From the sequence record NC_054909.1: 64,000 nt of DNA, one strand, 5' to 3'. Source of the DNA: Escherichia phage EC121. Shown here one piece after another: positions 47,471 through 48,225 of this stretch. Numbering within the stretch: the first letter of the stretch is position 1; each line of letters starts with the position of its first letter. The position numbers and the translations under genes are program-made. Under the pieces are notes generated by a model. That model saw nothing but the letters and a program-made list of their open reading frames with translations. It searched no databases and had not been told where the DNA came from.

Positions 47471-48019
47471 ACCCAAGAAAACATCTACTGATCGCTGATA
47501 CCACTGCAGATCCAAATAGCCATTACGCACATTAAATTGATAGAACATATGACAAGGTGGTAATGCCATTTGCTTGAGTTCTGCCGGATTCCATGCTGAA
47601 ACAATTTGACGTCTATCATTTGGCAGTTTTTTAATACGTTCAACAACTTCTATAATTTGATCTACGCCACCAAAATCGCGCCACTGTTTTCCATAAATTG
47701 GACCAAGTTCACCGCTATGGTATCCTAAATCTTTTGCTTGATTTTCGTAATTTTCATCCCAAACTGTTTTGCCTTGGATTAACGAATCATGTTGAATTAA
47801 TCGCAAATCATTGACATTTGTGCTTCCCGATAAAAACCATATTAGCTCAGCAATACAGGCTTTCCATGCTAATTTTTTAGTTGTTACCACAGGAAAACCT
47901 TTAGTTAAATCCCAGCGTAATTTAGTACCGAACAAAGCAATTGTTCCTGTGCCTGTTCGGTCATCGGTTTCATAGCCATTTTCCAGAATATCTTTAATTA
48001 AAAATTGGTATTGTTTCAT
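47471..48019 (-). CDS. td: Thymidylate synthase exon 1
   Basis: ATG at 48019 (MKQYQ...), 183 codons, ends ...VDVFLG directly before the intron UAA. Confidence 0.9.
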
Positions 48020-48225
48020 TAGTTCATCCAAGAATATGTAGAAGGATATTTGGCAAAGTTAGGTTTATATCCTAATTTAACCATTTGTTTTGCTTTGCGA
48101 GTAAATCCTAAAGAACGCTCACCTTTAAGATACTGTTTTGGTGTCATAGGCCCTTGATGCATCTGCCGACAAATAAAAAGGGCCATAGCATTAGGAACAT
48201 CCTTAACTTTTAATTTATTGCTCAT
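48019..48225 (-). CDS. Hypothetical 68-aa basic protein inserted between frd and td
   Basis: ATG overlaps the frd TGA (ATGA) and its TAA overlaps the td ATG (TAATG). Confidence 0.6.

Follow-up and report, generated by a model that had tools for sequence, protein, structure and literature searches.

Among phages of the T4 type, lateral movement of small genes has been described for the PeSL + ORFan cassettes (Arbiol et al. 2010, PMC2839356; Comeau et al. 2014, PMC4122927), which move via intergenic promoter and stem-loop motifs in hyperplastic regions (PMC2839356). The 68-codon open reading frame (ORF) considered here, located between frd and td, resembles these cassettes in its small size, in having no known function, in being found between conserved genes of some phages and missing from others, and in its lateral exchange. 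However, it comes without intergenic DNA, promoter or stem-loop, and its exchange runs from a 4-nt overlap of stop and start codons to a position within td. The hallmark of PeSL, an intergenic early promoter and a stem-loop flanking the gene, was not found at the ORF (RNA folding z = -0.01, i.e. no excess structure), and because the locus has no intergenic DNA, the PeSL vehicle is not applicable.

The T-even group I introns and free-standing homing endonuclease genes (I-TevI; seg, mob) constitute the other close comparison. Like the ORF, they are patchily distributed among close relatives, and they are found as near-identical copies in more diverged flanks, which points to recent lateral spread; this pattern is reportedly typical of T-even introns. 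Unlike them, the 68-aa protein has no endonuclease domain and is too small for one, the presence of its gene is independent of the neighbouring I-TevI, and we saw no sign of active homing.

The ORF lies in a stretch of 64,000 nucleotides from Escherichia phage EC121 (NC_054909.1), called the window below, which is of the Tequatrovirus type (best match in the phage collection ∼96% over 12 kb). The gene order on the minus strand is frd, the 68-aa ORF, td exon 1, an intron with I-TevI, td exon 2, nrdA.2, nrdA.1 and nrdA. The dihydrofolate reductase gene frd (48222..48803, minus strand) is 94% identical in nucleotides to T4 frd and is annotated as such in matching records. The ORF itself (48019..48225, minus strand) consists of 204 coding nucleotides plus a TAA stop and ends in ...SWMN. 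It is followed by td exon 1 (47471..48019, minus strand; 549 nt, translated as MKQYQFLI...VFLG), and the I-TevI homing endonuclease ORF of the td group I intron, also annotated as I-TevI in matching records, occupies 46602..47339 on the same strand. The TGA of frd (48222-48224) overlaps the ATG of the ORF (48223-48225), giving ATGA at 48222..48225, and the TAA of the ORF (48019-48021) has one base in common with the ATG of td (48017-48019), giving TAATG; no intergenic base is left on either side. The product is a protein of 7.9 kDa with a pI of 10.26 and 13 lysine and arginine residues against 2 aspartate and glutamate residues. Thus, an earlier note on this DNA, made from the letters alone, was correct in placing a 68-codon ORF with a basic product at 48019-48225 between frd and td, as the window sequence and the ORF list confirm for the minus strand, and in describing it as coupled to both genes by overlapping codons.

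An ORF of 81 aa (48803..49048, minus strand), coupled to frd by TAATG, and another of 111 aa (49057..49392, minus strand) lie between frd and frd.1, an interval that in T4 is merely a gap of ∼70 nt. Compared by position and size, comparable coding sequences are found between these genes in P922 and Sf21, which have both, and in T2, which has the one abutting frd; the gene 32-td stretch as a whole seems to be a plastic region. An Rfam scan (E <= 1) did not report the td group I intron (46455..47470, minus strand), presumably because the I-TevI ORF of 738 nt that interrupts it splits the intron core beyond the tolerance of the model.

In T4 (NC_000866), frd covers 145109..145690 and td, annotated as a two-piece join, ends at 145112, so that the two genes overlap by 4 nt with nothing between them. 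The direct ATGA overlap that the earlier note had given for T4 is therefore real. When the two junctions were aligned, the window showed a clean extra segment of 204 bp, within flanks that are 93-94% identical, and T4 had no ORF. The edges of the segment are a 5-nt direct repeat, AATGA, with its left copy at 48222..48226 and its right copy at 48016..48020 (both minus strand). The 30 nt located 5' of the ATG of the ORF are identical to the 30 nt located 5' of T4 td. The gene is not common to T4 and all its relatives: T4 is without it, and 134 of 571 junction records span it. We also considered that empty junctions of the T4 type could be recent deletions mediated by the AATGA repeat, but the predicted hybrid, an empty junction followed by a td 5' end of the type found with the ORF, had no single-piece match among the best 30 of 441 records, and this possibility was rejected.

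The frd-td junction of Tequatrovirus exists in at least three states, which are empty (T4), occupied by the 68-aa ORF (window) or occupied by an unrelated ORF of 115 aa (T2, RB9). The last is encoded by an insert of ∼415 bp found in T2, RB9, PST, PP01, Sf22 and other Tequatroviruses (T2 locus L023, 1792-2139; RB9 locus L024, 1802-2149) and belongs to phrog_1928, of unknown function in PHROGs. It is similar to the 68-aa ORF in its locus, accessory status and lack of a known function. However, the two are unrelated in sequence, and in T2 the 115-aa ORF has spacers of its own and a promoter-like TTAGCTTCA...TATAAT motif before td, with no translational coupling. The 115-aa protein shares 44% identity with the ORF that comes first after frd in CIP9, and it has distant kin in the ORFs located ahead of the 68-aa gene in Marfa, CIP9 and 4S. 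ORFs of both families are present together in these phages (Marfa, Kanagawavirus CIP9 and Serratia phage 4S), in a fuller array of frd, one or more phrog_1928 ORFs, the phrog_9550 ORF (the family of the 68-aa protein) and td. The Tequatroviruses carry subsets of this array: none of the ORFs (T4), the 68-aa ORF only (window) or the 115-aa ORF only (T2).

The 68-aa protein matches PHROG family phrog_9550 from end to end (E = 1.3e-45, residues 1-68 against profile positions 1-68 of 68), and the window copy is an ordinary member that does not differ from the family. No function is assigned to phrog_9550 in PHROGs, and we found no function, fold or literature for the family and no paper dealing with the ORF. 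The gene is not new, as it belongs to a family already on record, though uncharacterised: hypothetical proteins of this type occur in >100 GenBank genomes of T4-like and phAPEC8-like phages, and the identical protein is present on 332 public contigs. Every source but one labels it hypothetical or uncharacterised. The exception, 'DUF4858' (phage vB_EcoM_Shinka, MZ502379), is unsupported, as a Pfam scan of the protein gave no family at E <= 1, DUF4858 included. NCBIfam gave no match either, and PADLOC-DB had none for the window protein or for the phAPEC8 homolog, in agreement with the statement in the earlier note that no domain is recognisable.

A tblastn search found the protein in 236 phage records. 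With the junction as a megablast query, 571 records were retrieved, 134 of them spanning the ORF, and the ORF alone retrieved 145, duplicate GenBank and RefSeq entries being included in these counts. About a quarter of the close relatives of T4 therefore carry the gene (134-145 of 571 junction records, with duplicates included and phylogeny uncorrected), which is the behaviour of an accessory gene, as had been proposed. Full-length homologs with 40-60% identity exist in unrelated phages; the phAPEC8 homolog is 43% identical to the window protein and matches phrog_9550 with E = 3.2e-39. When 1.84 billion cluster representatives were searched exhaustively with a profile, only 11 were returned for the family, indicating that it is small, and a scan of IMG/VR gave nine loci, mostly from genomes already in GenBank.

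Several records bear odd or unsupported labels. 'Flagellar biosynthesis protein' is the name given to the protein in PYPS2T and vB_EcoM_P8. Some copies are deposited in assemblies of Escherichia coli and Bacillus cereus, on contigs that span 167-172 kb and presumably represent phage genomes. 'Campylobacter phage B15' is the name attached to a phAPEC8-like genome, and 'Pseudomonas phage vB_PSGBLB0006' that attached to a Tequatrovirus. In Shigella phage sb4 (locus L029, 1501-2567), the ORF is annotated as a truncated 162 nt (92.6% aa identity) and td as two coding sequences without an intron, likely reflecting frameshifts or sequencing errors in the record.

In all the Straboviridae carriers that we examined, from five groups, the 68-aa gene lies directly upstream of td and is coupled to it. 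These carriers are the Tequatroviruses P922, sb2 and Sf21, the Dhakaviruses JS98, KIT01 and dhabil, Marfavirus, Kanagawavirus CIP9 and Serratia phage 4S. Across the deeper genera, the aa identity of the 68-aa protein (62-81%) is between that of Frd (38-49%) and that of Td (76-84%), which fits a long co-inheritance with the flanking genes. The position upstream of td in Marfavirus, Kanagawavirus and 4S, with a divergence in step with that of the flanks, indicates that the arrangement is old. Judged from these comparisons, the gene has probably long resided directly before td in Straboviridae, and T4 is simply one of the genomes without it. As the fuller array exists in other genera and the Tequatroviruses carry subsets of it, the word 'inserted', used at first for the ORF of the window, probably has the direction wrong.

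Outside Straboviridae, the phAPEC8-like homolog and five distant metagenomic homologs are part of long arrays of small unannotated genes, and the phAPEC8 homolog is located downstream of annotated host-dependent promoters. On the contig of one distant homolog (P0024; locus L017, 286-669), a Tad2-like gene (PF11195) is found ∼4 kb away and a Phage_T4_Y05C gene 0.2 kb away, so this neighbourhood includes accessory genes, among them a known counter-defence family.

The comparison of Tequatrovirus with Dhakavirus gave a different picture at the ORF and at its flanks. Between the window and JS98, KIT01 or dhabil, the ORF is 97.1-97.6% identical in nucleotides (dS 0.11-0.14), whereas frd is 75-81% identical (dS 0.82-1.06) and td exon 1 past its first ∼65 nt is 74-79% identical (dS 2.6-3.1 for the whole exon). 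We defined the edges of the common tract by a column-by-column alignment of four Tequatrovirus and three Dhakavirus junctions. In seven of seven genomes, the tract begins within 5 nt of the ATG of the ORF and stops after ∼56 nt of td; beyond it, SNPs specific to the genus reappear at position -5 of this ATG and at nucleotide ∼57 of td. In the window, the tract corresponds to 47964..48229 on the minus strand, comprising the ORF and about the first 56 nt of td, and carriers of the two genera are 97-99% identical over it. In a scan of 11 kb by 100-nt sliding identity, only one other patch reached >=93%, a short one in nrdA. The synonymous divergence of the ORF is also low within each genus (dS 0.03-0.05 vs 0.17-0.73 in the flanks for Dhakavirus; 0.08-0.11 vs 0.12-0.45 for Tequatrovirus). 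It is 5- to 25-fold below that of the flanks across genera and within Dhakavirus, and ∼1.5- to 4-fold below within Tequatrovirus. Since synonymous sites of the ORF have been free to change over longer times (dS ∼1 vs Marfa), this low diversity reflects recent spread and not a constraint at the DNA level.

An ORF that is 97-98% identical amid flanks of 75-80% argues for a recent exchange as a promoter-less cassette, and the alignments indicate that one allele of the 68-aa ORF recently passed between Tequatrovirus and Dhakavirus. The direction was tentatively from Tequatrovirus to Dhakavirus in these seven genomes, because the dS of the ORF is lower in Dhakavirus and because the cassette-type td 5' end also occurs in Tequatrovirus beside the other allele, the 115-aa ORF, where it was found by the hybrid search (best 30 of 441 records). 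In Shigella phage sb2, the first 400 nt of frd (locus L026, 826-1225) are 88.6% identical to JS98, compared with ∼75% for other Tequatroviruses, which points to a second, independent recombination patch between the two genera in this region.

The function of the 68-aa protein was approached by structure prediction. A first AlphaFold2 run with 15 sequences gave a three-helix model with a pLDDT of 62; a second, with 23 sequences including the phAPEC8 branch, reached a pLDDT of 76 and a pTM of 0.53, i.e. a moderate confidence, with predicted helices at residues 13-24, 29-38 and 43-49. A profile search of the PDB by sequence returned only chance matches, to antibody light chains and Dickkopf (E > 0.3). 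A fold search found no match, and the predicted fold appears unlike anything solved. The charge of the protein, its conserved basic residues (K4, K6, R20 and K34), the three-helix model, the early-type placement among small genes elsewhere and the patchy, recently spreading distribution led us to propose, tentatively, that it may be a small basic binding protein, with nucleic acid or an acidic protein as its partner, conferring a conditional advantage. An unlikely reading, compatible with the low synonymous divergence of the allele, its sharp tract edges and its predicted fold, is that the ∼262-bp tract did not merely recombine passively but recently swept through two genera either as a counter-defence protein, directed at a host defence or host factor, or as a nuclease-less homing passenger that would shield the ATGA junction from a trans-acting T-even endonuclease.

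The main rival on function is a role associated with Td or Frd. The 68-aa protein could act together with thymidylate synthase or the enzyme complex that makes dNTPs, or regulate either, being made in stoichiometric amounts with Td through coupling, or it could tune the translation of td. Every Straboviridae carrier that we examined has the ORF next to td and coupled to it, a strict adjacency that may stem from a td-related role and not simply from history, and the exchanged tract takes in the first ∼56 nt of td, altering Td residues 6 and 12 relative to T4. However, T4 and about three quarters of the Tequatrovirus records have td without the ORF, and the cassette-type td 5' end also occurs beside the other allele, in the absence of the ORF. 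Moreover, the phAPEC8 homolog is not beside a td gene in the 40 kb inspected, and the neighbours of the five distant metagenomic homologs (up to 5 kb of flank) include no Pfam match for thymidylate synthase. For these reasons, we consider a Td-partner role rather improbable.

The earlier note had seen in the vicinity of a homing-endonuclease target gene a reason to regard the ORF as a possible remnant of a mobile-element exchange. The exchange part of this proposal stands, since the ORF itself was exchanged between Tequatrovirus and Dhakavirus, but the exchange was not of the proposed homing kind. A selfish passenger or homing remnant could take three forms: the ORF may be carried along by I-TevI-driven co-conversion of td exon 1, it may be the leftover of a free-standing endonuclease gene, or its insertion may destroy the site at which a trans-acting endonuclease would cut the frd/td junction when empty. 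In both genera the allele is low in diversity while its flanks are more diverged, a pattern reportedly typical of T-even introns and of homing endonuclease genes (of 252 intron matches, 189 are >=99% identical). This pattern and the sharp common tract edges are compatible with such an origin, and the ORF lies 549 nt upstream of the insertion site of the I-TevI intron.

Co-occurrence was examined with a chimeric query, joining the ORF to the 5' region of the intron with the start of I-TevI, and with two single-segment queries. Among the 571 junction records (duplicates included), 145 have the ORF, 252 the intron segment, 326 either and 71 both, vs 64 expected. All four combinations exist (71/74/181/245), and there is no association (odds ratio 1.30, Fisher p = 0.18, uncorrected for phylogeny and duplicates). 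Klebsiella phage HMGUkp2 (PV683292.1, 93518-94539) has both the ORF and a td intron with I-TevI, at ∼88% identity to the window, indicating that this combination is not limited to coliphages. The td genes of the Dhakavirus carriers are intron-less, and together with the co-occurrence statistics this led us to reject hitch-hiking with I-TevI. Pfam and NCBIfam revealed no GIY-YIG, HNH, LAGLIDADG or NUMOD/HTH module in the protein, and the supposed link to the homing target gene is thus not sustained. Finally, 68 codons kept under purifying selection across deep divergence are not a decaying remnant. Taken jointly, the three forms of a homing origin appear very unlikely.

That the stretch encodes a protein follows from its conservation. 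In homologs down to 59% identity, 24 alignment columns are invariant, and dN/dS is 0.05-0.28 across diverged copies with a dS of ∼1, the pairwise values against the copies of Klebsiella phage Marfa, Enterobacter phage CIP9 and Serratia phage 4S being 0.08-0.23, with dS near or beyond 1. The base composition is native (GC 0.35, GC3 0.28) and matches that of the neighbouring genes. Spurious ORFs of 30-159 codons are numerous in this region, so that the length of the ORF alone is not significant; it is this conservation that raises it above chance. The extra gene seen relative to T4 is therefore genuine, and by its sequence the 68-aa ORF is a protein-coding gene, which would be expressed through translational coupling on the transcript that it shares with frd and td. 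At the ORF, sites resembling promoters or terminators did not exceed shuffle expectation, and an Rfam scan of it gave no family match; on these results and the folding value, an RNA element or a regulatory spacer was rejected. Given the low dN/dS with saturating synonymous change and the full-length homologs in unrelated phages, it is hardly conceivable that the ORF arose by chance in a spacer without coding function, or that the stretch is an RNA element or a regulatory one, even though AT-rich phage DNA gives many ORFs of this size and the original JS98 annotation left the stretch unannotated.

Our preferred explanation, to which we give a probability of about 0.7 as a whole, combines an accessory gene, coupled expression, an old residence upstream of td, a recent transfer as a cassette and a proposed binding role. 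The 68-aa ORF would be a genuine but dispensable accessory gene of T4-like phages, of family phrog_9550, absent from T4 and most Tequatroviruses. Having no promoter, terminator or spacer of its own, it would be made by coupling from the frd-td-nrdA nucleotide-metabolism transcript. Ribosomes ending frd at ATGA would restart on the ORF, using the upstream sequence that serves td in T4, and those ending the ORF at TAATG would restart on td. The frd-td gap would have two unrelated ORFan families as occupants, phrog_9550 and the 115-aa phrog_1928 of T2 and RB9. The transferred allele would be a cassette of ∼262 bp with low diversity in both genera, one breakpoint being the ATGA overlap and the other lying ∼56 nt inside td. 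Early in infection, its product may bind nucleic acid or an acidic protein of the host or the phage; the advantage would be conditional, depending on the host or the niche, and the protein would not be needed for dTMP synthesis.

These observations indicate that the textbook ATGA overlap of T4 frd and td is just one of at least three natural states of this junction. A gene devoid of promoter, spacer and terminator appears to have been gained, lost and exchanged between genera at a stop/start overlap, leaving an essential coupled operon unbroken, and this route is different from that of the PeSL cassettes described for T4-type phages. The sequence itself is ordinary, and the cross-genus behaviour of the cassette and the three-state junction are of modest interest. 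If the counter-defence reading were true, this basic protein of 68 aa would represent a new counter-defence family. In any case, a tiny, strongly constrained and recently spread family could reasonably be included when phage accessory genes are screened for function.
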